Made by a program: the position numbers and the translations under genes. Under the pieces are notes generated by a model. It made no database searches and was not told where the DNA came from. It saw only the letters and a program-made list of their open reading frames with translations. From Candidatus Methanoperedenaceae archaeon (lineage in GTDB: Archaea > Halobacteriota > Methanosarcinia > Methanosarcinales > Methanoperedenaceae), in the NCBI GenBank assembly GCA_963753595.1, contig CAVWCX010000001.1, positions 128,001-192,000 on the forward strand: a DNA stretch of 64,000 nucleotides. The letters run 5' to 3'. Position 1 is the stretch's first letter, and each line of letters opens with the position of its first letter. Below are positions 19,694 to 43,255 of the stretch, one piece after another.

Positions 19694-19720
19694 ACACAAA
19701 AATTGATACGAACATATAAA

Positions 19721-21864: not shown

Positions 21865-24800
21865 ATGGATATGGAAAAAGGGAAGAATAACAAAAGTTTG
21901 AACAGCATTTTTAATATAATTTTAATTTTAATCGTAATTTCAATATATTTTATACCGGCAGCTATGGCGGCAAATCCGCAGATAAAACTTACAACGAACA
22001 GGTATATAATTCTTGACGATCCAAATAAAAATTATTTAAGTGTAACAGCAAATGCAGAAACTGGTTTTGGTTTACCGGGAAGCTGGAGTACGGATGCGTG
22101 GAAAGGTGAATCCACCACAATCCGAGGTGTCGCTCTTGTCCTCAATGCCGATGGCACTCCCGCCAGCGGAGTGACAGTAACCTTCTCTGCCCTTGACTGG
22201 AATGATGCAGCACCAAGAGATCCTCTTAAGAGTGATACGAACAGCAAGACAAATGTAACAAATGACTACGGTCTTGCAACAGTTCCTTTTGATCTTAATA
22301 ATGAGCAGCAATACGGGAGATGGAAAATAACAGCTACAGCAACAGTAGCAGGGACTCCAGTAAGTTCAAGCTCCAATTTCGTTTATAACTGGTGGGGATG
22401 CCAGAACTGCCACGGAAGTCCTTATTCTGGCCAAGGGAGCTCTAAGAGTTATACATCGAGAATAGGAACTGGCAATAGATACGACCCATATTCACCATAT
22501 ATTACAGGAAGAGATTTCCATGCCACGATGTATCGCAGCGACCATGTTGCAGGTTCTTCCGGGGGGTTGAATGAGGGAGAATGCTGGGCATGTCACAATT
22601 CTTATGATAAAGACTTGAACCTGGGACAGGCAAAAGATGTTGATGGTTCTTCGTATTCAGGAAGAGATGCACCTTCAACGTATGGTGTACATACAAATTT
22701 AGCATGTGCTGAGTGTCATAGCATAATAGGAACAAGTTCAGCCGGAATTGACCAGACCGTGAAATCATGCGATGCAACAGGATGTCACATAGGCGCAACA
22801 GATTTTAATTCTCATATAGGGTCTGAAACAGTTACAGCAACCTCTCCCAATAAATATGTAAATTATTCTGGTCTTGATGCCGCACTGGGGTTAAGGTCAT
22901 TCCTCAGTTCTCCATCTTATATTCCAACACCAGCAACCTTCAATTCAAATCCCCTGACAGGAGCAAGAGCCCATACATCAGCCACAGTCCAGAACATCCC
23001 CTGTACGGTATGCCATGGGCCAATGCACAATGTTACAAAACCCAATATCAACACGGTACCAAAGAACACAATTACTGAAGATACACAGTGTACCACATGT
23101 CACCAATCCCTGAAACACTCAAATAATAATCCTGTTTATTGTACGGCATGCCATTCTCAGGATGCTCATAACATTACAGTACTCAGCAAAACAGCAACTT
23201 CCCAGCCTTCTTATGAGTTCCTGGGTTCTACGAATGCGATGACAAATTTGACAACAGATTGCGAGCAGTGCCATGCATCAGGGCCTGAAGCCACATTCTT
23301 TGGCTCATTGACCACGGCTGACAGTGCAGCGTATTCTACAAATTTCGCGCCAGCCACACCAGTGCATAACAGGCATAACGGCACTGTTGCATGTACAGTT
23401 TGTCATGACAATACTAATTTCCACGACATCAAGTTCTTGCAGCCAAATGGCGCATATTCGACTTCCAAGACGACAGCAGTGAAATGCATTGACTGCCATG
23501 ATGGAACAAACTCTGCAGTACGCAGCGTTGTGCAGACCAGGTTCGGTTCATTACCGCCAACAGTAAATGCCAATATGAACCACAGTTCAGATAACGGCGG
23601 TCAGAAATGGGGCTCCTACTGGACAACTCCAAATGAAGCATGTCTCTACTGCCATGGTGAAACGCAGCATAATACATCTGCCATAGGTGCGGCAGGAAGT
23701 GCACTTGGTACTGATAAAGTCGGTGACCCGATTGGTTCAGGCACGGTATGCTCAAGCTGCCATAATCAGGATGACAGCAACTATAATGTCGTGAATTCAC
23801 TTTCCCCTAAACCACCTGCGAATAAAGCAGGATCGAACTATCCATCCAGCGGAGCAGTGGATCACTCAAGCTTTGGTATAACTGATAATGATTGCAAGAA
23901 CTGCCATGGCAGTAACCTTGCTGGCGGTGAGAACATGGTTGGATTCACTCATAATGTAGCCCCGTCTGGTGGAAGTGGCTCATGCGATTCCTGCCACGCA
24001 CAACCGCCCAATGGCGCTTCAAGATATAATACACAAGGCGCTCATACACTACACTCAGCAGCAGGATATGGCAATGTAGCAATCACCGGCTGCAATTACT
24101 GTCATTCGACAGAAGGCGCAAATGAAGCCGGCCATCCCGGAACATTCAATGATGCCACTGTAGTCACTAATTCCTCAGCAACAATCGCGTTATATACTCC
24201 GAACAACCTGAACGGCAAAGACGATACATGCAGTGGTGTCTCCTGCCATACAACCGGTCTTAGCAATGGAGCCAAAGTCGGCACAGCCACCTGGGACTCC
24301 ACAACCGGAGCCTGCAGCAACTGCCACTCCACAGTCCCAAGCGGTCTTCCGCCTACAGGCAACCATACCAAACACTACACCACAGAGAACTACCAGTGCG
24401 CCACCTGTCACGGCACTAATGCCGATGCAGGGACACAGACCGGTCACAAGACCAATGGAGCAATCGACATATCCTTCACAGGTACACTTGCAACCGGCGG
24501 CAGTATCACATCAGGCACATGCGACGTCTATTGTCATTCACCAAACCCCAACGATGTCAAACCCAAACCTGCCTGGAACACATCAACCGTGGTCTGTGGG
24601 GATTGTCACAGCCTTCCGCCCACCACAACACGAAATGGTGTTTCACATACGACCAATACTAACTGCGACATCTGCCATGGAACAGGTGCTTCAACAGGCA
24701 CTCAACTCGGTCACATAGATCGTTCGATCACCACATTGGGAGGCGGCAGTACATGTACAATATGTCATGCCCAGCCACCCAATGATGCAATTGTAACAGA

Positions 24801-27414
24801 TCAGCGCAACAATACCGACGGAGCCCATATCCTGCATAAGAACAAAGGCTATGGTGCAGTTGCCGAAACAAGCTGCAACTATTGTCATAACAATGGTGGA
24901 AGCAACGAAGGTGGAGCCCATCCAAACGGTTTGTACAATGTGGTTACTAATTCCTCAGCAACAATCGCGTTATATACTCCGAACAACCTGAACGGCAAAG
25001 ACGATACATGCGCGGGTGTCTCCTGTCATACAACCGGTCTTAGCAATGGAGCCAAAGTCGGCACATCCACCTGGGACTCCACAACCGGAGCCTGCAGCAA
25101 CTGCCACTCTACAGTCCCAAGCGGTCTTCCGCCTACAGGCAACCATACCAAACACTACACCACAGAAAACTACCAGTGCGCCACCTGTCACGGCACTAAT
25201 GCCGATGCAGGGACACAGACCGGTCACAAGACCAATGGAGCAATCGACATATCCTTCACAGGTACACTTGCAACCGGCGGCAGTATCACATCAGGCACAT
25301 GCGACGTCTATTGTCATTCACCAAACCCCAACGATGTCAAACCCAAACCTGCCTGGAGCACATCAACCGTGGTCTGTGGGGATTGTCACAGCCTTCCGCC
25401 CACCACAACACGAAATGGTGTTTCACATACGACCAATACTAACTGCGACATCTGCCATGGAACAGGTGCTTCAACAGGCACTCAACTCGGTCACATAGAT
25501 CGTTCGATCACCACATTGGGAGGCGGCAGTACATGTACAATATGTCATGCCCAGCCACCCAATGATGCAATTGTAACAGATCAGCGCAACAATACCGACG
25601 GAGCCCATATCCTGCATAAGAACAAAGGCTATGGTGCAGTTGCCGAAACAAGCTGCAACTATTGTCATAACAATGGTGGAAGCAACGAAGGTGGAGCCCA
25701 TCCAAACGGTTTGTACAATGTGGTTACTAATTCCTCAGCAACAATCGCGTTATATACTCCGAACAACCTGAACGGCAAAGACGATACATGCGCGGGTGTC
25801 TCCTGTCATACAACCGGTCTTAGCAATGGAGCCAAAGTCGGCACATCCACCTGGGACTCCACAACCGGAGCCTGCAGCAACTGCCACTCTACAGTCCCAA
25901 GCGGTCTTCCGCCTACAGGCAACCATACCAAACACTACACCACAGAAAACTACCAGTGCGCCACCTGTCACGGCACTAATGCCGATGCAGGGACACAGAC
26001 CGGTCACAAGACCAATGGAGCAATCGACATATCCTTCACAGGTACACTTGCAACCGGCGGCAGTATCACATCAGGCACATGCGACGTCTATTGTCATTCA
26101 CCAAACCCCAACGATGTCAAACCCAAACCTGCCTGGAACACATCAACCGTGGTCTGTGGGGATTGTCACAGCCTTCCGCCCACCACAACACGAAATGGTG
26201 CAACACCACATGCAGGTGTTACGGATTGTGATGTCTGTCACGGTACGGGTGCTAATACAGGAACCCAGAACGGCCATATTAACAGAATTATAGACGTATC
26301 AGGCGGTGGCTGCACAGGATGTCACAGCAATGTTGGTACCGCAAGTCTTGGCCTTCACTCCAATTTAAACGGAACGTCCGCAGTCGATGACGGAGATTGC
26401 CAGACCTGTCATTTTGCTTCATTCCCAATGGTAACCGGTGCGGCAAATAGTTCCAATACGCATTATTGTCAGGATTGTCATACCAGTGCAGGAACAGGAT
26501 CTCCTAAACCGGGTAGTTTAGTATCGGTAAGCCATGGAAAAATCGACTGTAAATGGTGCCATGCGGCAGGCGATCAACCAGCCTCTAAGTATCATTCGAA
26601 TAATCTTGGATCACAGCAAGGACCAAAAGGTACAGCAACAGGAGCGAATTGTGCTACCTGCCACGGTGCTAATCTTCAAGATGTATTTAGAGCTCCGGGA
26701 ATAACACATTTAGGAGATATTACTACTTGTGGTGAATGCCATAGCGGTGCTAACAATCACTTAGTATCAGCGTTAAGCGATTTTTCCTCTCCAACACTTT
26801 CAGGAATACCACTGACAACATCGGTAACGGTCGGAGCACCTGCTCATATCCAGGCTACAGTATCAGACAATATTGTGATGATAGCAGCTGCCCAGTATCA
26901 GGTAACAAATACCTCAGGAACGGTCATTCCATGGACAAATATGACATCCTTGGATGGATTTAATTCAGCAACTGAAACTGTTATTGCATCAATACCTACA
27001 TCAAATCTAATTGGTCCTTATACAGTTAGCATTAAAGGCATGTCTTCAGCATACAAGACTGATCCTTCAAAGCCATATTATCCACTCAATGGTATGTGGA
27101 GCAGCGTTAGTACTGTTCAACTTATTGTTAATCAACCAAAAGGATATGTTAACGGAACAGTTAAAAATGGGACTAATACAATAGCAGGGGCGATAATAAC
27201 CACCAATACAGGTGTTTCCGCGATAACTGACTCGAATGGTAATTATTCCTTGAATCTTGCGTATGGCCCTTATCAATTAATTGCCACCAAGGAGCCGGAA
27301 TATTATTTCAACAACAGTGTAAGTGTAGAGGTTTCAGAAATTCCGGTAGATCAGAATATCATCCTGAATAAGAAACCCACTGGAACTATAAGCGGTACGG
27401 TTAAGAACAAATAA
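21865..27414 (+). CDS. Very large multiheme cytochrome c (36 CxxCH + 4 Cx4CH + 3 Cx3CH, counted by eye)
   Basis: Signal peptide, N-terminal Ig-like domain, Geobacter-type CxxxxCH...CxxCH repeats, C-terminal Ig and carboxypeptidase-regulatory-like domain. Confidence 0.92.
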   Translation: MDMEKGKNNKSLNSIFNIILILIVISIYFIPAAMAANPQIKLTTNRYIILDDPNKNYLSVTANAETGFGLPGSWSTDAWKGESTTIRGVALVLNADGTPASGVTVTFSALDWNDAAPRDPLKSDTNSKTNVTNDYGLATVPFDLNNEQQYGRWKITATATVAGTPVSSSSNFVYNWWGCQNCHGSPYSGQGSSKSYTSRIGTGNRYDPYSPYITGRDFHATMYRSDHVAGSSGGLNEGECWACHNSYDKDLNLGQAKDVDGSSYSGRDAPSTYGVHTNLACAECHSIIGTSSAGIDQTVKSCDATGCHIGATDFNSHIGSETVTATSPNKYVNYSGLDAALGLRSFLSSPSYIPTPATFNSNPLTGARAHTSATVQNIPCTVCHGPMHNVTKPNINTVPKNTITEDTQCTTCHQSLKHSNNNPVYCTACHSQDAHNITVLSKTATSQPSYEFLGSTNAMTNLTTDCEQCHASGPEATFFGSLTTADSAAYSTNFAPATPVHNRHNGTVACTVCHDNTNFHDIKFLQPNGAYSTSKTTAVKCIDCHDGTNSAVRSVVQTRFGSLPPTVNANMNHSSDNGGQKWGSYWTTPNEACLYCHGETQHNTSAIGAAGSALGTDKVGDPIGSGTVCSSCHNQDDSNYNVVNSLSPKPPANKAGSNYPSSGAVDHSSFGITDNDCKNCHGSNLAGGENMVGFTHNVAPSGGSGSCDSCHAQPPNGASRYNTQGAHTLHSAAGYGNVAITGCNYCHSTEGANEAGHPGTFNDATVVTNSSATIALYTPNNLNGKDDTCSGVSCHTTGLSNGAKVGTATWDSTTGACSNCHSTVPSGLPPTGNHTKHYTTENYQCATCHGTNADAGTQTGHKTNGAIDISFTGTLATGGSITSGTCDVYCHSPNPNDVKPKPAWNTSTVVCGDCHSLPPTTTRNGVSHTTNTNCDICHGTGASTGTQLGHIDRSITTLGGGSTCTICHAQPPNDAIVTDQRNNTDGAHILHKNKGYGAVAETSCNYCHNNGGSNEGGAHPNGLYNVVTNSSATIALYTPNNLNGKDDTCAGVSCHTTGLSNGAKVGTSTWDSTTGACSNCHSTVPSGLPPTGNHTKHYTTENYQCATCHGTNADAGTQTGHKTNGAIDISFTGTLATGGSITSGTCDVYCHSPNPNDVKPKPAWSTSTVVCGDCHSLPPTTTRNGVSHTTNTNCDICHGTGASTGTQLGHIDRSITTLGGGSTCTICHAQPPNDAIVTDQRNNTDGAHILHKNKGYGAVAETSCNYCHNNGGSNEGGAHPNGLYNVVTNSSATIALYTPNNLNGKDDTCAGVSCHTTGLSNGAKVGTSTWDSTTGACSNCHSTVPSGLPPTGNHTKHYTTENYQCATCHGTNADAGTQTGHKTNGAIDISFTGTLATGGSITSGTCDVYCHSPNPNDVKPKPAWNTSTVVCGDCHSLPPTTTRNGATPHAGVTDCDVCHGTGANTGTQNGHINRIIDVSGGGCTGCHSNVGTASLGLHSNLNGTSAVDDGDCQTCHFASFPMVTGAANSSNTHYCQDCHTSAGTGSPKPGSLVSVSHGKIDCKWCHAAGDQPASKYHSNNLGSQQGPKGTATGANCATCHGANLQDVFRAPGITHLGDITTCGECHSGANNHLVSALSDFSSPTLSGIPLTTSVTVGAPAHIQATVSDNIVMIAAAQYQVTNTSGTVIPWTNMTSLDGFNSATETVIASIPTSNLIGPYTVSIKGMSSAYKTDPSKPYYPLNGMWSSVSTVQLIVNQPKGYVNGTVKNGTNTIAGAIITTNTGVSAITDSNGNYSLNLAYGPYQLIATKEPEYYFNNSVSVEVSEIPVDQNIILNKKPTGTISGTVKNK
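24165..26199 (+). repeat. 780-bp (260-aa, 8 heme motifs) tandem repeat, ~2.6 near-identical copies
   Basis: ACAATCGCGTTATATACTCCG at 24181, 24961 and 25741. Confidence 0.95.
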
Positions 27415-27531
27415 TATTGAATGATAGGAATATATTGGAGCGAAATATTCTTTCGCTCTTTTTTTTTAATGTATTTTTATAAAAAAAATAATGAGATAGT
27501 TTTATCTATTAAAACGTTCATTTTATTTTTG

Positions 27532-30297
27532 ATGGATAGGATAGTGAAGATTTTGAAGCTTAACATATTTTCTGGAATTAAGGATAAAATGGGATTGTTG
27601 CTGATATTGATTGTATTTATTTCTTTTATTCCGATTGTTTTTGGTGCATCTCCGAACGATGCCTGTTTTAGCGGTATATGCCATAGTTCTTCAGGTCCTA
27701 CGATCGACCGCGCCCTGTACGACTCCAATCCACATAAAATAATCAAATGTATCGAATGCCATAATAGCTCAACAAATAACTTAGACCCTAGTCATGGTGT
27801 GTTCATAAGACAATTGAACGGCAGCAAGATCACAGGGCCCTTGACAACAAAATATTATTCCCAAAATTTCTCTCTATGTTATTACTGTCATGCAGAAAAG
27901 AATGTCGTAGGATTTTTACCAGGCTGGATACCCTCAGCTAACCACAGAAATACTACCCCGATTATAGTCTCAAACATAGGTACTAATTTTATCAATATTG
28001 ATCCATTAGGTTATCATAATGGCAGCGAAGGCGGAATTGATTCTGATATACCAACAAATATTCATTGGAATCATCTGGATGCCTTCGGGAGCGAAAATTA
28101 TGGTATTGGAGGCAAATTTGATACTGACATGGATGGAGTAAAAGACTCTTTTCAATCCTGCCCTGCCTGCCATAATGTCCATGGGACAAACTATCCTAAG
28201 ATGACAAGAAATGACTTAGCTATTGCTTATTCTTCTGATGGAAATGGAACATTTGGATATATCGGAAGCGAACAATACAACTTTAAAGGTGGCGATGTCT
28301 TTTGCGGAGGTGGTTGCCACACCTCTGGTATGGGTTATAAATATTATAGAACTGAGATAAAAATATTTCAAGACTGTATCTCATGCCATGTGGATGGTTC
28401 ACCCGGAGATGTAAACAGAACTGCTTTCAGCCTGGGTGAGCATCTTAATATTAATACCACTGGTGGTATTAACTCAGTTAATAACACAGACTGCTGGTCA
28501 TGTCACTTTAACAGGGATATGAATAGAAGCAACATCCGGCAATGTAATTACTGCCATACTGGAAGCGCCAAACCCGAAGCTCCAAGTGCGCCAATTATAA
28601 GAACACATGTCTCGGGAGTAAAGATCACTAATTATTCATGCGCGGATTGCCACAGCAAAGTGATCGTTGATCCTGGAACTGGAATTCCTAATGTAACATC
28701 CCATTATCTAAAGAGACCCAATGTATTAAGTGAAAAGTATTGCGATTATTGCCATGGACCAAATCCAAGCTCTCCATTCAATGCAACAAACAAGACTATT
28801 CCAGCGTTGAACCATGACAATTCGGACTGGAACGGAAATGCCACATGCCGAACATGCCATTCAAATTCCAGTGTTACGGCCGACCCTCTGGCTAATGATT
28901 ATACATCATTCCATGATCTTACTACTGAATTAGGCGATGTATATAATGGAACGGCAAGGGCAGACTGTTTCATATGCCATGTCCAGAACTCCCCACAGTT
29001 TGTCGTGGCTCCATATCCCTCGCATGATATTATTGGCTATAACGCAGAGGATTGCCGTAACTGTCATACATCAGGAACGGGCACGGAACCGCAAAAACTA
29101 CACAGCGTAACTGCATCTGCGACTGGCGGGTGCATACCCTGCCATTCAAATAATGCAACCAGGTATTATGCAAACACAAGCCTCTTTGGAAGACATGCAA
29201 ATGTAAATGCAACAGGTGGTCCGAATAACGTAACAGATGATGATTGTAAGACCTGCCACTTTGGTACTGCAGATGGGACGATGAAGATGAAGCTGGGTGC
29301 AGCGAACTCAAGTAACACGTATTTCTGTGAAGCATGCCATACATCAGCAGGTTCAGGACCAATCCATCCAATAGACAACAACCTTATTAAAGATGGTTTG
29401 CAGCATGGTTCAACAAATTGCCAGTGGTGTCATATTGCAGGTGCTCTTCTTCCAAGGCCATTAGATACTACTTTAAGATATCATCCCAGCGGGCCTCGAG
29501 GAACTGCTGCCGGAAAGAACTGCCTGACATGCCATGGTTCCAATCTCCCGGATTTACCTTTCCATGCACCTGGAATAGTACATTCTTCTGATTTAGATGG
29601 TTGTGGTTATTGTCATTCACAAACAGATAATCATGCTGTTAGCCCATTGAACTCTAACACTCCACCATCGATTTCAGGTTTGTCCGTTACTACAGTAGTT
29701 ACTGCAGGCAATGTAGTGCAAGTTCAAACTACGGTAGCGGATGATATGACTCAGATAGCAGCAGCCCAGTATCAGGTCAAGAAAGGTACAACCACAGTTA
29801 TTGATTGGACAAATATGACTCCAAAGGATGGAAGATTTGATTCGTCAAGTGAAATAGTGAACACCAGTATTGATACATCAGCCCTCCTGGGTACCTACAC
29901 AGTCAACATCAAGGGCATGGCTTCAGCATACAAGACCATTTTAACATTACCTTATTATCCATTGAACGGTCAATGGAGCGGTATCATCAGCGCACAATTT
30001 AGTGTTAACCAACCCACCGGGTATAATAATGGAACTGTGAGTGGAAGATTGGATAATGGTTTAGCAGGTGCGGTAGTATCTACCAATACAAGCGTATCCA
30101 CTACCACTAACGAAACCGGATTTTATTCTTTAAGTTTGACAAATGGCACATATCGGTTGACAGCAAGCAAGGATCCGGAATATTATTCAAATAGCAGTGT
30201 AATAGTGACTGTGATAGCACGCACTAATATAACTACAAATATTATTCTTGATTTGAAACCAACAGGCAATATAACTGGTAAAGTTACGAACAAGTAA
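27532..30297 (+). CDS. Large multiheme cytochrome c (17 CxxCH + 2 variant motifs)
   Basis: Heme motifs counted. True start is probably 27532-27589 (signal peptide), not 27421. C-terminal module shared with ORF 21865. Confidence 0.88.
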   Translation: MDRIVKILKLNIFSGIKDKMGLLLILIVFISFIPIVFGASPNDACFSGICHSSSGPTIDRALYDSNPHKIIKCIECHNSSTNNLDPSHGVFIRQLNGSKITGPLTTKYYSQNFSLCYYCHAEKNVVGFLPGWIPSANHRNTTPIIVSNIGTNFINIDPLGYHNGSEGGIDSDIPTNIHWNHLDAFGSENYGIGGKFDTDMDGVKDSFQSCPACHNVHGTNYPKMTRNDLAIAYSSDGNGTFGYIGSEQYNFKGGDVFCGGGCHTSGMGYKYYRTEIKIFQDCISCHVDGSPGDVNRTAFSLGEHLNINTTGGINSVNNTDCWSCHFNRDMNRSNIRQCNYCHTGSAKPEAPSAPIIRTHVSGVKITNYSCADCHSKVIVDPGTGIPNVTSHYLKRPNVLSEKYCDYCHGPNPSSPFNATNKTIPALNHDNSDWNGNATCRTCHSNSSVTADPLANDYTSFHDLTTELGDVYNGTARADCFICHVQNSPQFVVAPYPSHDIIGYNAEDCRNCHTSGTGTEPQKLHSVTASATGGCIPCHSNNATRYYANTSLFGRHANVNATGGPNNVTDDDCKTCHFGTADGTMKMKLGAANSSNTYFCEACHTSAGSGPIHPIDNNLIKDGLQHGSTNCQWCHIAGALLPRPLDTTLRYHPSGPRGTAAGKNCLTCHGSNLPDLPFHAPGIVHSSDLDGCGYCHSQTDNHAVSPLNSNTPPSISGLSVTTVVTAGNVVQVQTTVADDMTQIAAAQYQVKKGTTTVIDWTNMTPKDGRFDSSSEIVNTSIDTSALLGTYTVNIKGMASAYKTILTLPYYPLNGQWSGIISAQFSVNQPTGYNNGTVSGRLDNGLAGAVVSTNTSVSTTTNETGFYSLSLTNGTYRLTASKDPEYYSNSSVIVTVIARTNITTNIILDLKPTGNITGKVTNK

Positions 30298-34480: not shown

Positions 34481-36058
34481 GTTCAATGCAGGATGTGCCA
34501 CGATGCGATGCACAACATAACGATCAAGGATTGTCAAACATGCCATACCAGAGCACCAATCACCCACCCAATTCCAGACCCCTCTTTTTCCCTATATACG
34601 CAAAGCCAATGCCTCGCTTGCCATGGTGATCCGCACAAAGTGACAGCTGCTGGTGGAGGCTGTGTAGGATGCCACTCCAGTCCAGGCACCAGATACTATG
34701 TCAATACAAGCCTGTTTGCAGGACATGCAAATTTGAATACATCTGACGGTGCAAATAACGTCACAGATGCAGATTGCATGACCTGTCATTTTGGATCATC
34801 TGACATCATAATGAGCCCGGATGCGGGTCTTGGTGGTGCAAATCACAATAACACCTGGTTCTGTGATGATTGCCACACTGAAGGTGGATCAGGACCTCTC
34901 AAATCAACAATTCTAAAATCTGTTAGCCATGGTTCAACAGATTGTAAATGGTGTCATATTGCGGGGGACCCTCTACAAAGACCATTAATTAATGAAAATG
35001 AAACATTGAGATATCATCCCAATGGACCTAAGGGAACTTCGGCTGGACAGAATTGCTTAACCTGTCATGTATCTGGCAATCTTCCTGACCTGCCATTCCA
35101 TGCACCTGGAGAAAGCCATTCAACCACGACTACAGATGATTGTAGTGAATTTTGCCACCAAAATTCTGATCCTCACTGGGTCACTCCTTTAAATGCAGGG
35201 ACTCTTCCAACTATTTCAGGTTTAACAGTAACCACGCCAGTCACATCAGGAACACCCGCTATAGTTCAAGCTACAATAAAGGATGATTATATGCAGATAG
35301 CAGCAGCACAATATCGAGTTACTGATGCTTCAGGGGAAATAATTCCATGGACAAACATGACTCCAGCCGGAGGAAGATTTAGTTTATCGACACAGGGTGT
35401 TTCTTCGAATATAATCACCTCGAACCTGAAAGGCACATACACGGTATATGTCAAAGGGATGGCTTCAGCTTATAAGACGAATCCATCAATCCCTTATTAT
35501 CCGATGAATGGGCAATGGAGTAGTGGTGTTTATAGTGCTCAATTTAAAGTGGAAGAACCAGAAGGATATGGTAATGGAACGGTTTATGGTATCCTTGACC
35601 AAAAAATTGCAGGAGCTATAGTATCCACAAATACCAGCGTTTCTACAATAACAGACCAGAATGGGGCTTATTCATTGAGCCTTCCAAATGGAACGTATCG
35701 GTTGACAGCAAGCAAGGAGCCTGAATATTATTCAAACAGCAGCATAATAGTGGCGGTGACGGCGTTTACCACGGTAACTCAGGATATTATTCTCACTCCT
35801 AAACCAACGGGAAATATAAGCGGGACTGTCAGAGTTAAATGAGCACTCGTGAGGTTGAATTATTACATGTAAAATATAATGTAACAAAAATTCATGCAAT
35901 GACTTTGAATAAAAAAAGATAATTTGAAAATAAATGGCAAAAAAAGGCAATTTTAACCTCGCCCAAATTTTTTTGCTCAAGTGGTAATATTCGCTATACT
36001 CCCAATAACTGTAAGGTAAAATAAGAAATCTTAAATATCCGGACGTGGATTACGATTT

Positions 36059-36424
36059 ATGTTTTCGAATAATTTAACCAGAATAATTGTATCTCTACTG
36101 TTGGTGTTTTTTGTTTTTAGCGCAGCAACAGATGCAGCAACTACAACTACCTATAGTGGAGTGACAACAACTTATGTTGGCAACATCAGAGGCGGTGTAA
36201 CGGCAGCCTACAGTGGCATAAACTCAAGCGGAAGTGCGCAACCTGGTGAAAATGTCACTGATACAGTCAAAACACCTATCCCTGTTGCTACAGTAACTGA
36301 AAAAGCAAGTCAAACAGAAACAGGTAAAATACCCACAACTCCATCAGAAAAGGCTTCCGGATTTGAAGTTGTTTTCGGAATGTTGGCCATAAGTATTCTA
36401 TGGTTTAAACTGAAGAGAAGATAA
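36059..36424 (+). CDS. Small Thr-rich secreted protein with a PGF-CTERM-like (archaeosortase) tail
   Basis: Signal peptide; T/P-rich linker; ASGFEVVFGMLAISILWFKLKRR. Confidence 0.75.
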   Translation: MFSNNLTRIIVSLLLVFFVFSAATDAATTTTYSGVTTTYVGNIRGGVTAAYSGINSSGSAQPGENVTDTVKTPIPVATVTEKASQTETGKIPTTPSEKASGFEVVFGMLAISILWFKLKRR

Positions 36425-36735
36425 TTCCTGGCGATTTCCAGAAAAGTAATAGTTTGAGATAATACTATACTAATTCAGCCATATGTGGCCTGAGCAATCA
36501 TATTTTACTATTTGACAACATCAGTGTATATGGACAAATCAGAAGCTGAGAGTTTCACCTTGGGGGTGCGCCGGATGGCGGTGGATATGAGATTTTTCCA
36601 AACGTCTTATAATGATTATAACAATTATTATTTATCCCATTCAATAAATTTAAGTAGAAAGAAAGGGTACGTAAAAACAATCGTCGTTTTCAATAATCGT
36701 AATTTGAAAATGTTTTACAATGGATAGGATAGGAT

Positions 36736-39528
36736 ATGGATCATAAAAGTTACGTGGTATTTAAAATGAAAAATACGATCGAAACTGGAATTTTATTAAT
36801 TTTGTCAATACTGCTTTTAACCAATGTGGCAAGCGCTGCGTACACGGGCTGGGTGGCCCCGAGCGCAAATTCAGGCGGATCAGGGGTTTCAAATCCAACT
36901 TATGCTTACGTTGATACTACTACATATGCATCTTTCTCCAATGCTGGTTATTGGAACTGGTATGGTTATGCATTATCCTCAATTCCTTCGGGAAGTACTA
37001 TAGATGGTATTGAAGTAAACGCAAAAGGACGTGAATCTTCGTCTGGTTGTAGTAGTTGTTATATGCGGTTGCGGTTAAGCTATGATGGCGGTACGACCTG
37101 GACAAGTTATATCAATACGGCATCTTCATCATGGACAACTACCATCTCGGATCATATTGCTGGAGGCCCGGCTAATAAATGGGGGCGCGAGTGGACAAGA
37201 GACGAGATAGTGAATAATCTTAGAGTTCAGGCGTATTGGGTTGGCAGTAGTACTTCAGGACGTCTTACCTATCTTCCTGTGAAAATTTATTATACTGAAC
37301 CAGTCGATATAACTCCCCCTGTAATTACATTATCAGGTTCAAGTTCGGTGACCGTCGAAGCAGGTTCCGTATATACCGATGCGGGAGCAACTGCACAGGA
37401 CAATATTGATGGCAACATTACTTTATCCATTGTAACAGGCGGTCTCCCGATCAATACGAACATCCTCGGAACTCACACAGTCACTTACGATGTGAATGAC
37501 TCTAATGGCAATGTGGCGATCCAGGTTTCAAGAACTGTTAACGTTGTTGATTCAACTCTCCCTGTAATTACGTTATCAGGTTCCAGTCCTGTTACCGTCG
37601 AAGCAGGTTCTGCATATACCGATGCGGGTGCAACAGCCCTTGATAACTATGATGGTGATCTTACTTCTTCCATCGTAACAGGAGGTCTCCCGATCAATAC
37701 GAACATCCTCGGAGCTCACACAGTAACTTACGATGTTACTGACTCTAATGGCAATGCAGCGATCCAGGTGACAAGAACTGTTAACGTTGTTGATTCAACT
37801 CTCCCTGTAATTACGTTATCAGGTTCCAGTCCTGTGACCATCGAGATCGGTTCTTTATATACCGATTCAGGGGCAACAGCATTGGATAATATTGACGGTG
37901 ATATTACCTCTTTTATAGTAACGGTCAATCCTGTAAACACAGCAATTATTGGAACATATACTGTCACCTATAATGTAAAAGACTCAAGCAACAATAATGC
38001 AGATCAGAAAACAAGAACGGTCAATGTAGTGGATCTAACTCCACCAGAGATCACCTTAAACGGGAATAATCCAGAAATTGTAGAGGTAGGTTCAACCTAT
38101 ACTGATGCCGGAGTCACAGTTACAGATAACTACGATACTGGTCTCTTGGCAACAATGACTGGAAGTGTCAATACAGCAGTTTTGGGAGAATATATACTGA
38201 CTTACAATGCAGTGGACTCTTCAGGAAATGCAGCCATTATGAAAACAAGAACAGTAAATGTAGTGGATACAACCGGGCCTGAGATCACCTTAAACGGCAA
38301 TAATCCTGAGACTGTTGAGGCAGGTTCAACTTATACTGATGCCGGAGCCACAGTTACGGATAACTACGATACTGGTCTCATACCAACAATGACTGGAGCG
38401 GTAAATACAGCAGTTGTAGGGATATATACACTGACTTATAATGCAGTTGATACTTCAGGAAATGCAGCCATTATGAAAACAAGAACTGTTAACGTTGTTG
38501 ATACAAATACACCAATAATTACGTTATCAGGTTTCACTCCTGTGACCGTCGAAGCAGGTTCAGTATATACCGATGCGGGAGCAACTGCACAGGACAATAT
38601 TGATGGTGACCTTACTTCATCCATTGTAACAGGAGGACTTCCTATCAATACAAGCGAACTCGGAGCTCACACAGTTACTTACGATGTGACTGACTCTAAT
38701 GGCAATGCAGCGATCCAGGCGACAAGAACGGTTAATGTTGTTGATACAACTTCCCCTGTAATTACTTTATCAGGTTCCAATCCTGTGATCGTCGAGGCAG
38801 GTTCCGTATATACCGATTCCGGGGCAACTGCACAGGACAATATTGATGGCGACATTACTTCATCCATTGTAACAGGAGGTCTCCCGGTCAATACAAAAGT
38901 CCTTGGAGCTCACACAGTTACTTACAATGTGACCGACAACAGTAGCAATTCAGCCGTCCAGGTGACGAGGACTGTTAACGTCGTTGATACGACTTCCCCT
39001 GTAATTACTTTATCAGGTTCCAATCCTGTGACCGTCGAGGCTGGTTTTTTCGTATATACGGATGCGGGGGCAACAGCTCTTGATAACTATGATGGTTACC
39101 TTAATTCATCCATCGTAACGGGAGGTCTCCCGATCAACACGAACATACTCGGACCTCACACAGTTACTTATGATGTGGCCGATTCTAATGGCAATGCAGC
39201 GATCAGGGTGACAAGAACTGTTTTTGTTACCTCAACACTTCCGAGTGTAAGGCAAATTAACGGCACTGTCATCGATAGCGCGCACACACCCCTTGCAGGA
39301 GTAACAGTTTCAACAACAAACGGAATTTCATCAATGACAGATGGATCCGGAAAATATTCACTTATTGTCGGCCAGGGATCATATCCATTGACTGCATCGT
39401 ATGATATCAGATATTATACGAATAGGTCTGTGACCGTATCCACAACTGGATTCACAAGTGTGACGCAGGATATTGAACTTGTATTGAAACCAACAGGAAA
39501 TATAACCGGTATTGTAAAAAGTAATTAA
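36736..39528 (+). CDS. Adhesin-like surface protein with 8 DUF5011-type Ig repeats
   Basis: Eight D..P.ITL.G...V..G..YTD.G.T..DN.D repeats; N-terminal beta domain; C-terminal carboxypeptidase-regulatory-like domain. Confidence 0.85.
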   Translation: MDHKSYVVFKMKNTIETGILLILSILLLTNVASAAYTGWVAPSANSGGSGVSNPTYAYVDTTTYASFSNAGYWNWYGYALSSIPSGSTIDGIEVNAKGRESSSGCSSCYMRLRLSYDGGTTWTSYINTASSSWTTTISDHIAGGPANKWGREWTRDEIVNNLRVQAYWVGSSTSGRLTYLPVKIYYTEPVDITPPVITLSGSSSVTVEAGSVYTDAGATAQDNIDGNITLSIVTGGLPINTNILGTHTVTYDVNDSNGNVAIQVSRTVNVVDSTLPVITLSGSSPVTVEAGSAYTDAGATALDNYDGDLTSSIVTGGLPINTNILGAHTVTYDVTDSNGNAAIQVTRTVNVVDSTLPVITLSGSSPVTIEIGSLYTDSGATALDNIDGDITSFIVTVNPVNTAIIGTYTVTYNVKDSSNNNADQKTRTVNVVDLTPPEITLNGNNPEIVEVGSTYTDAGVTVTDNYDTGLLATMTGSVNTAVLGEYILTYNAVDSSGNAAIMKTRTVNVVDTTGPEITLNGNNPETVEAGSTYTDAGATVTDNYDTGLIPTMTGAVNTAVVGIYTLTYNAVDTSGNAAIMKTRTVNVVDTNTPIITLSGFTPVTVEAGSVYTDAGATAQDNIDGDLTSSIVTGGLPINTSELGAHTVTYDVTDSNGNAAIQATRTVNVVDTTSPVITLSGSNPVIVEAGSVYTDSGATAQDNIDGDITSSIVTGGLPVNTKVLGAHTVTYNVTDNSSNSAVQVTRTVNVVDTTSPVITLSGSNPVTVEAGFFVYTDAGATALDNYDGYLNSSIVTGGLPINTNILGPHTVTYDVADSNGNAAIRVTRTVFVTSTLPSVRQINGTVIDSAHTPLAGVTVSTTNGISSMTDGSGKYSLIVGQGSYPLTASYDIRYYTNRSVTVSTTGFTSVTQDIELVLKPTGNITGIVKSN

Positions 39529-39716
39529 CGAAAACATCCTGCAGGATCGTATTAAATTAATGTTCCTGCAGGACCATTTGTATTTTTGAGCCCAGATATT
39601 GAAGAGGAAATTGAACTCTTTTGAAAACTATCTTTTGAAAACCGAAAAGACTAATAACAGGAAGTTTTAAACATATCCGAAATAGCCAAAAAATAACGGA
39701 TAGGTGTGGTTAATAA

Positions 39717-41504
39717 ATGATACAATGTAAAACATATAGAAGATATCAGATCTTCAAGAAGGTTATCGAACTAAGTATTGTGTTATTTGTCCTGTTGTCT
39801 GGCGGGGCACTTGGTGCAACAATAAACCAATGCGGCAATATTGATTCACCAGGCGACTACGTACTTGGCCAGGATATCTGGAGCACAGGGAACACGGCAG
39901 TAACGTCCTGCATTAATATAACGTCAAGCAATGTGGTTTTTGACGGTGGTAGCCATTATATTATTGGCAATTCAGCAGAAGTCGGATCGATCGGGGTTTA
40001 CGTGAATAATCCAGCAAGCACTATTACAAATGTAACTGTAAATAATGTGAACGTTACCCGGTGGGACTCCGGAATTTATCTGCGGAATTCTTCTAATAAT
40101 AATGTCACAGGCAACAATGCCTCAAATAACTCAAATGGGATCAACCTGTCTAATTCAAACAATAATTATATTTATAATAATTATTTTAACAATTCAAATA
40201 ATGTTATCATTGACTCAAGTGTAAATTATTGGAATACAACAAGACGATCGGAAAAAAACATCATCAATGGCTCTTTTATAGGGGGCAATTTCTGGGCAGA
40301 CCCTGATGGTAATGGCTGGAGCCAGACATGCACGGTCAATAATTTCTATGGGATGTGTGATTCACCATACGTTATCGATCCTGCCAACAAAGATTTCCTG
40401 CCGCTTACGAAATTACTGCCAACGGCAAGGTACATTACCGGTAAAGTACTTGATAATGTTACTAAACTGGGTATTGCTGGCGTGAATGTATCTCTTAATA
40501 ACAGCAACTCGACTATCACTGATGATGATGGGTTGTATTTCTTCGTGGTAGGGCCAGATACATTTGAAATTACGGCGACTTTTGATATGACGTATTATAC
40601 GAATAATTCGGTAGTCATTTCGACAGTATCAAATCCTGTTGTGGAGCAGGATATTTTACTTGTTAAGAAGCCAACAGGAACGATAACAGGTAAGGTGTCC
40701 GGATACACAATGATAACAATATCTTCACCAGTGAATATCTTTTACCACACGACTGAAATTCCATTGATCGTCTCTTGCGACAAGCCAGCCAATTCCTGGC
40801 AATATAGCCTGAATGGGGCAGCTAATGTCACATTCACACCACCTGCTACTATAACTGTTTCACAGGGACAGAATAACCTGATAGTATATGCACTGGATTC
40901 AACAGGTAAATGGGATTCAAATTCAGTTTCATTTTCTGTGGATTCGATACCTCCGGCATCTGTGGATAACCTTCACAATGTAAGCTATGCCTTTGATTAT
41001 ATCAACTGGACATGGGCTGATCCGGCAGATGAGGATTTCCAAAAAGTGCTGGTGTATCTTGATGGCGTTCTTAAGGGCGAAGTTCCAAAAGGAGTAATGT
41101 ATTTCAATGCTACTGGCCTGGAACAGGCAACTTACACAATTGGTATAAGAACAGTGGATATCAATGGCACTGAAAATGCGACCCTGAGGACGCACACAGC
41201 AGCCACAATTCTTCCGGAAGGAAGGTACATTAACGGTACAGTAATGGAAAAGGGCACAACAAACGGAATAAAGGGCGTTAATGTGACCACCAATACATTA
41301 GTTTCAACATTGACGAATGAAACAGGGTTCTATTCACTGTCCCTTCCTTCGGGCTCATTTGACCTTACGGCAAGGCTTGAGCCAGGATACTATACCAATA
41401 GTTCGGTAACGGTATCAACAGAATTGAGAGCTGTTACGATACAGAATATTGAACTTGAAATTAAACCAACAGGAAATATTACAGGAAGTGTTAAACATGC
41501 TTAA
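39717..41504 (+). CDS. NosD/parallel beta-helix surface protein with Ig/FN3 and two carboxypeptidase-regulatory-like domains
   Basis: Asn-rich GIYL..S.NN repeats, GGNFW..P.G.G.S motif typical of Methanosarcinales surface proteins, YINWTWADP FN3-like domain. Confidence 0.82.
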   Translation: MIQCKTYRRYQIFKKVIELSIVLFVLLSGGALGATINQCGNIDSPGDYVLGQDIWSTGNTAVTSCINITSSNVVFDGGSHYIIGNSAEVGSIGVYVNNPASTITNVTVNNVNVTRWDSGIYLRNSSNNNVTGNNASNNSNGINLSNSNNNYIYNNYFNNSNNVIIDSSVNYWNTTRRSEKNIINGSFIGGNFWADPDGNGWSQTCTVNNFYGMCDSPYVIDPANKDFLPLTKLLPTARYITGKVLDNVTKLGIAGVNVSLNNSNSTITDDDGLYFFVVGPDTFEITATFDMTYYTNNSVVISTVSNPVVEQDILLVKKPTGTITGKVSGYTMITISSPVNIFYHTTEIPLIVSCDKPANSWQYSLNGAANVTFTPPATITVSQGQNNLIVYALDSTGKWDSNSVSFSVDSIPPASVDNLHNVSYAFDYINWTWADPADEDFQKVLVYLDGVLKGEVPKGVMYFNATGLEQATYTIGIRTVDINGTENATLRTHTAATILPEGRYINGTVMEKGTTNGIKGVNVTTNTLVSTLTNETGFYSLSLPSGSFDLTARLEPGYYTNSSVTVSTELRAVTIQNIELEIKPTGNITGSVKHA

Positions 41505-41614
41505 ATATGTGCAAATGCAGAATAAAATGATGATGAGGAACGAAAAAGTCGAAAGTTATATAAACTTTCGTTTCATAAGATTGTTATATAATAATATAGG
41601 ATAGGAGAGTAGAA

Positions 41615-43255
41615 ATGAATCAAATGAAAGGTTTTTCTCGAGTGAATAGATTTATTGCGTTGTTGTTAGCTATATCGTTTTTGGTATTGGGGACTGTGAG
41701 TTCAGTATCAGCGGCTGTTACAACTGCAAGCGGTGACAATATAAGCGGTGCATTTGTCAAGCTTGTGGATTATCCCCAGTATAATGCTACGACTGATGGT
41801 TTTGGGAATTATGCTATCCTTAATGTACCATATGATGGGCTGGCGGGGGGGTCGACATATTCAATAAGAACTCGTGCGGCTGGATTCGCTCTAAATACCA
41901 GCACTGTTTTTATTAATGGAGCGAGTGCAACAAAGAATATTGCTTTATTACCGGGATATAAATACACTGCAGCTGGTCAGATATATGGTGGCCAGTGGAG
42001 AACTAATTTCATAATCGGTAATCTGGGGCCCCAAGCTACAACCTTAGATGTTAACTTCATAGATTTGTCAGGTATCACCAGAAATAATTCCGAGGATGTA
42101 ATTTCAAATATGGCCTCGAAAGATTACACCTGGTTTGATAGAGTAGGCGCTATTGAAGGATCAGGAACAATAACTTCAGAACAGTTAATTGACACAGTAA
42201 CCTTACAAAGAAGCAGTTCAGCAGGTAAAATAGGATTCTTTGAAGGAACACCATTGAATACAGAAAAAACACAATGGTTTGTGCCAGGTATGATTTTCTC
42301 TGGTCAGTGGAGATCAGGGTTTAAAGTTCTGAATCTTGGAACTGTTGATGCGGATGTGACTATGTATTGGTATAATTCAAATGGTGTTTTGATAAACACA
42401 ATAACCAGAACAATACCTCCAAATGCAGCGCCATATTATGATTGGAATACCTATGGGTTAATTGCAAGCGGGAACTCACCACAAGCAACTGAAGGTACGG
42501 TTACTATCGTCTCTAACAATGCCCAACCCATCAGTGTAACAGCATCACAGGCAAGTGAAAGCGCAGGAAAATTCGGGTTCTGGAACGGTATTTATTTGAA
42601 TGACCAGAAAACAGATGTATTTGTTACAGGTCAATTATGGAATAATCCAGCATGGAGATCAGGCTTTAAAGTAGCGAACATTGGTTCAGTTGATGCTGAT
42701 GTAACTATGTATTTCTATAATTCTGCAGGCACTTTGATAAATACTGTGAACAGAATTGTATCTCCAAAAGCATCACCATATTTTGATTGGTATACATATG
42801 GATTTGTTCCAAGCGGAAATGTTGCAGGCGACGGCACTGTCAGAGTAGTATCAAATAATGGTACACCTATATATGTGGTAGAAAGCCAGGCCAGTGAAGT
42901 TCCAGGGTTTATTGATTTCTATCAGGGTGTAGAAATTAATGGAAATAATACTGCAGGCCTTATAAACTTGAAATTTGGAGGCGGTGAGCGAAGTGGATTC
43001 AAGATTGCAAATCCTGGGAATTCGCCAATAACTGCTACTATCAAATTCTATAACGCTACTGGAGGACTTCTAAGAACTGAAACCGGTTTTAGTGTTCCTG
43101 CGAAAGGATCGCCATACTTGGCCTGGAATACATATACTTCAGAACCTTCAGGTTCAGTGACTGTGGAAGCAACAAACAGGATAAGTGTTACAGTAAGCTT
43201 CGCAAGTGATACAGAAAGCAAAATGGGTATGTTTAAAGGAATAGCAGTACAATAA
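41615..43255 (+). CDS. Secreted protein: N-terminally incomplete carboxypeptidase-regulatory-like domain plus four ~100-aa beta repeats
   Basis: Repeats WRTNFIIGNLG, WRSGFKVLNLG, WRSGFKVANIG, ERSGFKIANPG. Confidence 0.8.
   Translation: MNQMKGFSRVNRFIALLLAISFLVLGTVSSVSAAVTTASGDNISGAFVKLVDYPQYNATTDGFGNYAILNVPYDGLAGGSTYSIRTRAAGFALNTSTVFINGASATKNIALLPGYKYTAAGQIYGGQWRTNFIIGNLGPQATTLDVNFIDLSGITRNNSEDVISNMASKDYTWFDRVGAIEGSGTITSEQLIDTVTLQRSSSAGKIGFFEGTPLNTEKTQWFVPGMIFSGQWRSGFKVLNLGTVDADVTMYWYNSNGVLINTITRTIPPNAAPYYDWNTYGLIASGNSPQATEGTVTIVSNNAQPISVTASQASESAGKFGFWNGIYLNDQKTDVFVTGQLWNNPAWRSGFKVANIGSVDADVTMYFYNSAGTLINTVNRIVSPKASPYFDWYTYGFVPSGNVAGDGTVRVVSNNGTPIYVVESQASEVPGFIDFYQGVEINGNNTAGLINLKFGGGERSGFKIANPGNSPITATIKFYNATGGLLRTETGFSVPAKGSPYLAWNTYTSEPSGSVTVEATNRISVTVSFASDTESKMGMFKGIAVQ

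Follow-up and report, generated by a model that had tools for sequence, protein, structure and literature searches.

In chaperone-usher pili, a beta-sandwich that is short of a strand borrows it from another polypeptide. In Type V pili of Bacteroidota (FimA/Mfa1), C-terminal strands donate and an N-terminal segment is proteolysed, which opens the groove; these pili are homopolymeric, lipoprotein-anchored, and gingipain-cleaved. Archaeal and bacterial filaments of the TasA superfamily (AbpA, AbpX, CanA, Sulfolobus threads, and Tafi) are portrayed in a preprint (10.64898/2026.01.04.697558) as built from beta-sandwiches that lack a strand until another polypeptide supplies it, with an extracellular and chaperone-free assembly that follows removal of the signal peptide and the resulting exposure of a competent end.

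The locus considered here lies in a window of 64,000 nucleotides from a Candidatus Methanoperedenaceae archaeon (the whole stretch of DNA analyzed, to which all positions below refer; all features are on the forward strand), and the reading proposed for it would be a variant of donor-strand complementation, which is known in filaments. Similar to donor-strand filaments, an incomplete beta-sandwich is proposed to be completed by a strand in trans. Those filaments use an N-terminal donor strand and polymerize from homologous jelly-roll pilins. Here, the putative donor strand sits at the C-terminus of unrelated cargo proteins, as a tail behind a complete transthyretin-like domain, and a hub that is not a pilin would provide the acceptor in the form of one domain. 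These proteins gave no match to a TasA or pilin family. A likeness of the hub to AbpX appeared with the full-length profile (E 0.002–0.003) but was not reproduced with the four-repeat profile, and it was therefore dropped as evidence. Different from the homopolymeric Type V pili, the docking proposed here would be heterotypic and one-to-one, involving enzymes and cytochromes, and the groove would be opened by the position of the signal peptidase cut alone.

A functional analogy can be drawn with the cohesin–dockerin system, in that varied secreted proteins carry one small C-terminal tag for a scaffold module and that both split and fused versions occur. However, a dockerin, which consists of a duplicated Ca-binding helix module, attaches to the face of a cohesin whose fold is already complete. 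Here, a strand would complete the fold, and no Pfam match to dockerin or cohesin was found on the window proteins or the hub. With tandem CarboxypepD_reg/prealbumin-like arrays (PF13620) the locus shares both fold and sequence family, and tail plus acceptor correspond to an ordinary domain junction; unlike in these arrays, the junction is broken immediately behind strand A and shared by two genes, of which the second has gained its own signal peptide. A search of the openly accessible literature found no description of this tail; the papers listed on strand complementation concern cannulae and bacterial surfaces.

Results

Across the whole genome, the motif KPTGxIxGxV follows nine copies of one CarboxypepD_reg-like domain subfamily, which are spread over eight secreted proteins. 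Eight of these nine copies are terminal, with the protein ending three residues past the motif, that is, 13 residues past the domain. When all six frames of the 2.89-Mb genome were scanned for KPTG.[IVL][ST]G.[IVL], eight matches appeared, every one located behind such a domain, and the ninth copy (KPTSNISGRVKQV) was recovered by an HMM of the domain. The alignment of the nine copies contains 18 invariant columns, six of them in the 13-residue tail (K88, P89, T90, I93, G95, and V97). The tail pattern is not due to chance. An N-glycosylation sequon (N-I-T/S) is present in seven of the nine tails and absent from some copies.

Six of the nine domain-plus-tail copies are located in the region highlighted by the first-pass annotation, which had placed the tail at five C-termini and one internal site; all six positions proved exact, and each tail is preceded by a CarboxypepD_reg-like domain (Pfam). 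The first donor module (27133–27411; domain 27133–27372, 13-aa tail 27373–27411, KPTGTISGTVKNK) forms the C-terminus of a multiheme cytochrome (MHC) of 1849 aa (ORF 21865–27414), and the second (30010–30294; domain 30010–30255, tail 30256–30294, KPTGNITGKVTNK) that of a 958-aa MHC (ORF 27421–30297). The third (35555–35839, with its tail at 35801–35839, KPTGNISGTVRVK) belongs to ORF 34466–35842. Alignment to the orthologue in genome G006 identified an N-terminal MHC part (30580–32769) and an inserted IS transposase gene (32877–34373), together covering 30580–34373; the segments 30580–32769 and 34466–35842 align end to end with this one 1196-aa orthologue. The transposase gene thus splits one MHC gene, of which ORF 34466–35842 is the C-terminal fragment. 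While the tails on three supposed MHCs and two heme-free adhesin-like proteins are all real, the third "MHC" is consequently a C-terminal piece only.

The fourth module (39238–39525, tail 39487–39525, KPTGNITGIVKSN) is carried by a 930-aa HYR/Ig-like surface protein (ORF 36736–39528). A NosD/beta-helix protein (ORF 39717–41504), encoded directly upstream of the acceptor gene, contains an internal domain with a tail-like strand (40416–40706, strand 40668–40706, KPTGTITGKVSGY) followed by more Ig-like domains, and ends in the fifth module (41211–41501, tail 41463–41501, KPTGNITGSVKHA), which was paired with the acceptor domain for complex modelling. When the PF13620 profile was searched against the whole genome, the donor domains at the C-termini of the window proteins scored 32.8–39.1 bits and the acceptor domain 32.3 bits, which places them in the family at its curated cut-off of 32.3 bits; in whole-protein Pfam scans, some of these CarboxypepD_reg domains fall slightly under the cut-off (27.6–29.9 bits). 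The internal copy (about 40416–40667) is absent from the whole-genome PF13620 matches at E ≤ 0.01.

The motif is recognizable in 49 members of a set of 55 homologues, and 47 of these 49 end 1–6 residues after it (mode 3), indicating that the exact length belongs to this genome and not to the family. The passengers of the tail vary among the 55 homologues; the donors range from multiheme cytochromes, a beta-helix protein, and an Ig/HYR adhesin to two kinds of enzyme (a subtilase and a glycosidase) and a cohesin protein. A tail-bearing protein on C17 carries cohesin domains. The tail also occurs, strongly conserved, on proteins encoded away from the hub gene (C17, C28, and C34). The internal motif is found in 17 of 18 full-length NosD-type homologues (P0151–P0162, P0164, P0165, P0167, P0020, both copies; one copy each in P0160 and P0165), and the motif therefore serves as an ordinary interdomain segment too. 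In tandem arrays of other organisms, the tail positions correspond to a linker plus strand A of the following repeat, and the first strand of the donors themselves looks similar to the tail (YINGTV versus NITGSV).

The candidate acceptor is encoded by ORF 41615–43255. Its signal peptide (41615–41713), with a predicted cleavage between VSA and A, was read directly from the sequence; Ala occupies position −1 of the predicted site in all ten split-type acceptor homologues aligned. The CarboxypepD_reg-like acceptor domain (41714–41962) begins at the xV half of strand A, without the KPxGxIxG half, and the same start is seen in all ten. The mature N-terminus had been thought to lack the entire first strand; its first half is indeed missing, but the xV half is retained as AVTT, which overlaps the final five tail residues. 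Four hub beta-sandwich repeats of about 100–114 aa each follow (41957–43252), with a weak Pfam match to DUF5719 (E 2e-4 to 3e-4, under the cut-off). A search of the Protein Atlas with these repeats yielded only unnamed bacterial clusters and DUF5719 leads, and the full hub model gave only generic multi-sandwich matches in a PDB fold search (TM about 0.1). The hub has no recognizable anchor of its own. A search of G000 turned up no second CarboxypepD_reg domain that is both N-terminal and strand-poor; the other CarboxypepD_reg proteins of this genome (C37, C34, C4, C7, C3, and C20) were rejected as acceptors, none having a strand-poor domain after the signal peptide.

Structure models were generated for both partners. 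In the AF2 monomer model of the donor, the domain is complete at residues 8–85, with a full strand A of its own (E8-16, high confidence), and the tail (residues 88–100) is coil, with a pLDDT of 74 over the last ten residues. The tail is not modelled as folding back into its own domain, suggesting that the donor strand is an extension outside the donor's own fold. The acceptor monomer has a pLDDT of about 90, yet its residues 27–46 (strand D) take part in no beta ladder. Alignment and prediction together thus portray an N-domain that is incomplete alone, and the acceptor fold appears to miss a strand and to leave an open slot.

For the acceptor domain modelled with the domain and tail of the fifth donor module, ipSAE reached 0.91, 0.92, and 0.91, and the best of three controls 0.00. 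This mark is attained by 58 of 80 solved complexes and two of 110 mismatched pairs, counts that are only a rough calibration because the alignments were author-built and included fused-form rows. The complex score is itself a prediction, and a pair of halves from one split domain is prone to score well through its likeness to the solved intact fold. Contacts agree among runs to at least 97%, with a partner pLDDT of at least 93. Tail residues 88–100 are modelled antiparallel to acceptor residues 33–40 (strand D), and V97 contacts I76 (strand G) and A13 (strand B) of the acceptor. The tail would thereby lie between strands D and G in the strand-A slot, a placement that may reflect memory of the intact fold. 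The donor family motif (E/D)PxYY (residues 60–62 and 64) is likewise located at the modelled interface, while acceptor residues 1–6 fall outside its confident part.

A tail-bearing gene lies directly upstream of, and on the same strand as, the ORF 41615-like gene in nine of 11 assessable genomes (G000, G006, G007, G008, G009, G020, G027, G040, and G047), which represent one genus and are not independent samples. The exceptions are G010, with a 77-aa remnant upstream, and G046, with no tail gene upstream; in G016 the contig ends within the upstream gene. The upstream passengers differ among genomes (MHC, beta-helix, Ig/ASH, or unknown), and G006 carries the syntenic cluster. Tail-bearing genes cluster together in any case. 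RNA-library contigs of a relative, from two studies, cover both genes, which hints at expression, the contig depths being unfit to rank the two genes. No RNA-library contigs bridging 41487–41722 were found, which is uninformative either way. Sequencing runs share only small fractions (at most 0.17 of sampled words), so that no habitat or strain claim is made.

Fused versions were also identified. Four ORFs of G044 contain a tail-type domain that continues straight into an acceptor domain and repeats, and this genome has only fused forms, with neither a free tail nor a split acceptor found. There is one MHC–Ig–acceptor fusion (G044, C9) and one Ig–acceptor fusion (G037, C238), and two proteins of 1902 and 1782 aa have hub repeats joined directly to an MHC. 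Where a fusion includes the acceptor domain, the residues at the tail position form strand A of that first hub domain. Of 53 family genomes, 21 have the tail domain, 15 have the acceptor family (plus a fragment at a contig end), and 14 have both. The expected co-occurrence of tail and acceptor is therefore strong but imperfect: an acceptor was found in 14 of the 21 tail-bearing genomes and none in the other seven, among them G015 and G026 (95% complete, five tails each), where the acceptor-domain profile matched internal domains only.

The window also encodes a 121-aa Thr-rich protein with a hydrophobic C-terminus (36059–36424), which had been described as PGF-CTERM-like and as a lipid-anchored tether. 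The peptide VGNIRGGVT is present at 36176 and represents a diverged copy of the TTTYSGV repeat that is not conserved. One clear orthologue, itself without the motif, was identified in 52 other genomes; the query gave no match in G006, where the gene cluster is syntenic, and no PGF-CTERM match against NCBIfam at E ≤ 0.01. ORF 36059 was consequently rejected as a tether and ruled out as a conserved part of the system.

Discussion

We favour, with moderate confidence, a split beta-sandwich docking in which the C-terminal tails complete the first domain of the ORF 41615 protein and thereby mount cargo on the hub. The 13-residue strand probably plugs into the incomplete N-terminal domain of the neighbouring hub, clipping varied cargo to one scaffold. 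This proposal builds on the observed anatomy, conservation, gene linkage, and fusions, and on a strand insertion that is predicted only. About eight secreted proteins per genome end in a complete transthyretin-like CarboxypepD_reg domain followed by KPTGNITGxVxxx, a tail that represents the linker and strand A of an absent next domain. Their putative partner, one ORF 41615-family protein per genome, presents a homologous domain without the first half of strand A right after the predicted signal-peptide cleavage site. Following secretion, the tail is predicted to enter between strands D and G of the acceptor domain, which would be donor-strand or fold complementation in trans, and the insertion would tether the cargo to the four hub beta-sandwich repeats that may localise or scaffold it. 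Eight donors per single acceptor socket pose a stoichiometry problem. Also weighing against this reading are the seven tail-bearing genomes in which no acceptor was found, the hub without a recognizable anchor, the overlap of AVTT with the tail, the interdomain use of the motif in NosD-type proteins, and the G046 acceptor without an upstream tail gene. From the plug-and-socket assembly put forward in the first-pass annotation, we retain the hub docking, which adjacency, fusions, and the complex and monomer models favour, but not the tether.

The same stoichiometry would suit an explanation that we regard as unlikely, in which the tail would tag proteins for docking to, or sorting by, some other partner (an S-layer protein, an envelope glycan, or a processing enzyme, for example), and the ORF 41615 family would be one client or accessory. 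The lack of a detectable acceptor in seven of 21 tail-bearing genomes, including the 95%-complete G015 and G026, a hub without an anchor, and the strong conservation of the tail on proteins far from the hub gene would also be consistent with this explanation. Nevertheless, no alternative partner emerged, the search of G000 gave no other N-terminal strand-poor CarboxypepD_reg domain, and adjacency, fusions, and the complex model all favour the ORF 41615 family. It is quite unlikely that the tail is a structural cap or the vestige of a lost tandem domain, engaged in no trans interaction, with the adjacency reflecting a shared exoprotein gene island. Six of 18 invariant columns fall in 13 of about 100 residues across nine paralogues, the extreme C-terminal place is kept in 47 of 49 motif-bearing homologues, and the tail is not packed as a strand in the monomer model; moreover, precisely the tail segment is missing from the acceptor family, and in the fusions it forms the acceptor domain's strand A. 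These observations outweigh, in our judgement, the identity of the motif with the linker-plus-strand-A segment in tandem arrays, the interdomain role of the NosD-type internal copy, and the general clustering of tail-bearing genes.

The likeness of the tail to the donors' first strand (YINGTV versus NITGSV) raises the question of whether the tail-bearing proteins might instead polymerise, each tail adding to the next domain by pilus-type donor-strand exchange, with the hub as terminator or base. Archaeal donor-strand complementation filaments are known, as the preprint cited above indicates (10.64898/2026.01.04.697558), but the high-confidence model gives the donor domains a full strand A (E8-16) and hence no open slot for another tail, and we regard polymerisation as very unlikely.

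If docking on the hub is extended to a general plug-in system, a 13-residue "strand tag" and a strand-deficient socket would attach adhesins and hydrolases as well as cytochromes to one shared beta-sandwich scaffold, with interchangeable split and fused states. Such a fold-complementation counterpart of the cellulosome, organising extracellular electron transfer, is suggested tentatively, at somewhat short of an even chance. A tag/socket pair on a small, stable beta-sandwich could also serve as a protein-coupling tool.

The very large extracellular MHCs of methane-oxidising archaea are without a membrane or lipid anchor. If the docking proposed here is correct, a strand tag with its dedicated socket would provide a concrete, testable answer to how these cytochromes are held at the surface, and donor-strand complementation would reach beyond filament building to the docking of varied cargo. 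The hub family would then be a component of the extracellular electron-transfer apparatus.

Tail-Bearing Proteins of the Genome

The secreted-protein genes at window positions 21865-43255 lie in one same-strand run, and homologues of the region's proteins carry the names Candidatus Methanoperedens or Methanosarcinales archaeon. The six positions at which the first-pass annotation had placed an extra strand (the tail, 13 residues of the KPTGxIxGxV type) were all exact on rechecking, and by Pfam each tail directly follows a CarboxypepD_reg-like (transthyretin-like) domain. Scanning all six frames of the 2.89-Mb assembly for KPTG.[IVL][ST]G.[IVL] gave eight matches, every one behind such a domain. 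An HMM built from these recovered a ninth domain copy, with KPTSNISGRVKQV, and matched no further ORF in the genome at domain E<0.01; the genome therefore holds nine copies in eight proteins. Eight of the nine have exactly 13 residues from domain to protein end, and the tail holds six of the 18 invariant columns of the nine-copy alignment (K88, P89, T90, I93, G95, and V97). Outside the window, the tail is borne by three proteins: a cohesin-domain protein (contig C17), an apiosidase-like glycosidase (C28), and a subtilase (C34).

The tails of the three multiheme cytochromes (MHCs) reported to end in this strand were confirmed, but ORF 34466-35842 is not a separate MHC. It is the C-terminal part of a gene for which ORF 30580-32769 supplies the N-terminal part, the two being separated by an IS transposase gene (32877-34373) and aligning end to end with residues 744-1196 and 20-751, respectively, of an intact 1196-aa orthologue in the related genome G006.

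An N-x-S/T sequon (N-I-T or N-I-S) occurs in seven of the nine tails (window, C17, C28, and C34), on the side predicted to face away from the core, and the donor domain contains several additional conserved sequons. Two cohesin domains lie in the C17 protein (locus L001, 189-1637), and dockerins occur in two proteins of this genome (C6:26081-26233 and C24:148509-148658), so a second, cohesin-dockerin docking layer could hang on the tail-based one.

Within ORF 21865-27414, three near-identical out-of-frame ORFs spaced by about 780 nt (24233-26293) indicate that a heme-rich unit of the 1849-aa MHC is triplicated, with local GC up to 0.51. A giant 3643-aa ORF at 7725-18656 (GC 0.44-0.48 vs. 0.35-0.40 in its surroundings) contains at least five CarboxypepD_reg-like domains and no tail at its end. 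Three cluster-flanking ORFs of 293, 164, and 538 aa (18812-20197 and 44697-46313) had no Pfam or NCBIfam match.

Origin of the Tail

A profile search against 1.84 billion representatives returned 14,435 matches. Most of the best 150 are tandem arrays, with the tail columns falling on the beginning of the repeat that follows, and direct reading of four examples gave '...L.P.PG.V.G.VT' followed by 'DA...P' at the junctions. Judged by this correspondence, the tail is an interdomain linker plus strand A of a following domain. The motif is recognisable in 49 of 55 close homologues and lies one to six residues from the C-terminus in 47 of them (mode, three); in the remaining two the terminal copy is degenerate and the search pattern matched an internal copy only. 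Passengers among these homologues include beta-helix proteins, subtilases, PF01663 and PF00149 enzymes, PKD and LamG proteins, and MHCs.

The Candidate Acceptor Family and Its Natural Fusions

In ORF 41615-43255, the candidate acceptor or hub, a signal peptide is followed by one CarboxypepD_reg-like domain and then by four beta-sandwich repeats, each about 100-114 aa long; this design is shared by 13 database proteins and by the homologues in nine other genomes. This small family has 18 near-length matches, all of Methanoperedens type. Position 2 of the Pfam domain profile aligns with residue 31, within the signal peptide. The hydrophobic leader of the homologues ends in a small-x-Ala site; position -1 of the putative cleavage site, as read from sequence, is Ala in all 10 aligned genes of the split type (acceptor as its own gene). 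Directly after this site stands (S)FVTAVSGDPIIGAF..., and thus the domain begins at the xV half of strand A. The first-pass annotation, which had this domain lacking its first strand, was therefore right about the absent KPxGxIxG half, but the xV half is kept. A full-length hub profile weakly matched PDB chains named AbpX or archaeal bundling protein X (E 0.002-0.003; 41957-43252), a match not reproduced with a four-repeat profile.

Genome G044, in which neither a free tail nor a split acceptor was found, encodes four ORFs of 932-1160 aa comprising a passenger, a tail-type domain, 'K(P/S/L)xYxLxGxV', and then, uninterrupted, the acceptor domain and repeats. By its position in these four fusions, the tail supplies strand A to the acceptor domain in cis. 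In a fifth G044 ORF, an MHC carrying the Ig-like domain of the window MHCs is fused to a full-strand acceptor module, and a G037 ORF likewise joins an Ig-like domain to such a module. Two database MHCs, P0210 and P0211 (1902 and 1782 aa, with 33 and 29 CxxCH motifs), have the window-MHC-type Ig-like domain directly joined to four hub repeats, without either CarboxypepD_reg domain. Together with the split genes, one cargo type is therefore known in three arrangements relative to the hub repeats: covalently joined to them, linked via a two-domain connector that is intact, or split into two genes by a cut that falls within this connector just after strand A.

Co-occurrence and Gene Neighbourhood

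Tail-type domains were identified in 21 of 53 family genomes and the acceptor family (profile matches spanning the repeats, E<1e-30) in 15; G003 adds a contig-end fragment and gave no match to the acceptor-domain profile. Given only as counts across the 53 genomes because kin are not independent, the two co-occur in 14 genomes, and seven tail-bearing genomes show no acceptor (G014, G015, G026, G028, G034, G041, and G042). G015 and G026 are each 95% complete with five tails; in these two, G041, and G042 the acceptor-domain profile matches only internal domains of large proteins.

In nine of 11 assessable genomes (G000, the genome under study, G006, G007, G008, G009, G020, G027, G040, and G047), a tail ends the gene immediately upstream of the acceptor on the same strand. 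Upstream of the acceptor, G010 has only a 77-aa remnant and G046 an unrelated gene; G016, where the contig ends within the upstream gene, was left out. The upstream tail genes are not one orthologue, encoding MHCs (G007 and G009), beta-helix proteins (G000, G006, and G040), an Ig/ASH protein (G027), and proteins of undefined type (G008, G020, and G047). RNA-library contigs of a relative (~90% identity, two studies) cover the beta-helix tail gene (39800-41484) and the acceptor (41741-43245) and hint at expression of both, these being separate contigs with depths that are not comparable and possible DNA carry-over.

The 121-aa ORF 36059 had been proposed as a lipid-anchored tether, a proposal that did not hold. 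Among 52 other genomes it has one clear orthologue, in G027, adjoining tail genes, and this query gave no match in G006, which has the syntenic cluster; TTTYSGV repeats replace VGNIRGGVT in the G027 copy, and no PGF-CTERM model matched at E<=0.01. Its rarity and the motif missing from its orthologue led us to reject it as a conserved part of the docking system.

Structure Predictions

The AF2 monomer of the donor domain plus tail (32-row alignment; mean pLDDT 88.6) has strands A to G at residues 8-85 and no strand assignment for tail residues 88-100, the last ten having pLDDT 74. As the first-pass annotation supposed of an orphan strand, the model does not fold the tail back as a strand. In the AF2 model of the mature hub (25 alignment rows; mean pLDDT 76.7, pTM 0.72, first domain about 90), residues 27-46, with strand D (GNYAILNV), lie outside any beta ladder despite high pLDDT; their donor-model equivalent is a regular strand.

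We modelled the 83-aa acceptor domain (27 rows) with the 100-aa donor domain plus tail of the adjacent gene (32 rows), using self-made alignments with rows from fused forms. The complex scored ipSAE 0.91, 0.92, and 0.91 vs. 0.00 in the best of three controls, a score that is the model's own confidence and that split-domain halves can pass through resemblance to the intact fold. Among solved complexes 58 of 80 meet the ipSAE mark, and among mismatched pairs 2 of 110. Contact agreement between runs was at least 97%, with partner pLDDT at least 93. The confident interface comprises donor residues 88-100 plus 60-62 and 64 (the last four being the subfamily's conserved (E/D)PxYY motif) against acceptor residues 30-43, 69-80, and a few of strand B. 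Donor-acceptor pairs 93-35, 95-33, and 90-38 place the tail antiparallel to strand D, and V97 contacts I76 (strand G) and A13 (strand B). The modelled tail lies in what we take to be the place of strand A in a prealbumin-type sheet. The last five tail residues overlap acceptor residues 1-6 (AVTTAS), a stretch that lies outside the confident interface.

Comparison With Known Systems and Implications

Donor-strand complementation is established in bacterial chaperone-usher and type V pili. Archaeal TasA-superfamily filaments such as AbpA, AbpX, cannulae, threads, and Tafi are a further established case (preprint 10.64898/2026.01.04.697558). Those pili and filaments are homotypic polymers with an N-terminal donor strand (both termini in type V pili), whereas the case described here differs in its donor, a C-terminal tag on a complete domain, in its transthyretin-like fold, in its varied cargo, MHCs among it, and in its acceptor, one socket carried by a non-pilin hub. 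Cohesin-dockerin scaffolding is functionally alike but differs in structural principle. Searches of the openly available literature turned up no description of this tail-docking arrangement.

Against a hub stand the seven tail-bearing genomes that show no acceptor, the lack of an evident anchor in the hub or of an assigned function for its repeats, the single acceptor slot facing eight donors, and the internal copy in NosD-type proteins, which is an ordinary interdomain segment. Independent comparative evidence and structure prediction favour the strand complementation proposed in the first-pass annotation, the docking itself being predicted, and with moderate confidence we suggest that the tails would dock into the strand-poor domain of the hub by this mechanism. 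The domain with its tail tags the C-termini of secreted Methanoperedens proteins in general and is not a feature of cytochromes as such.
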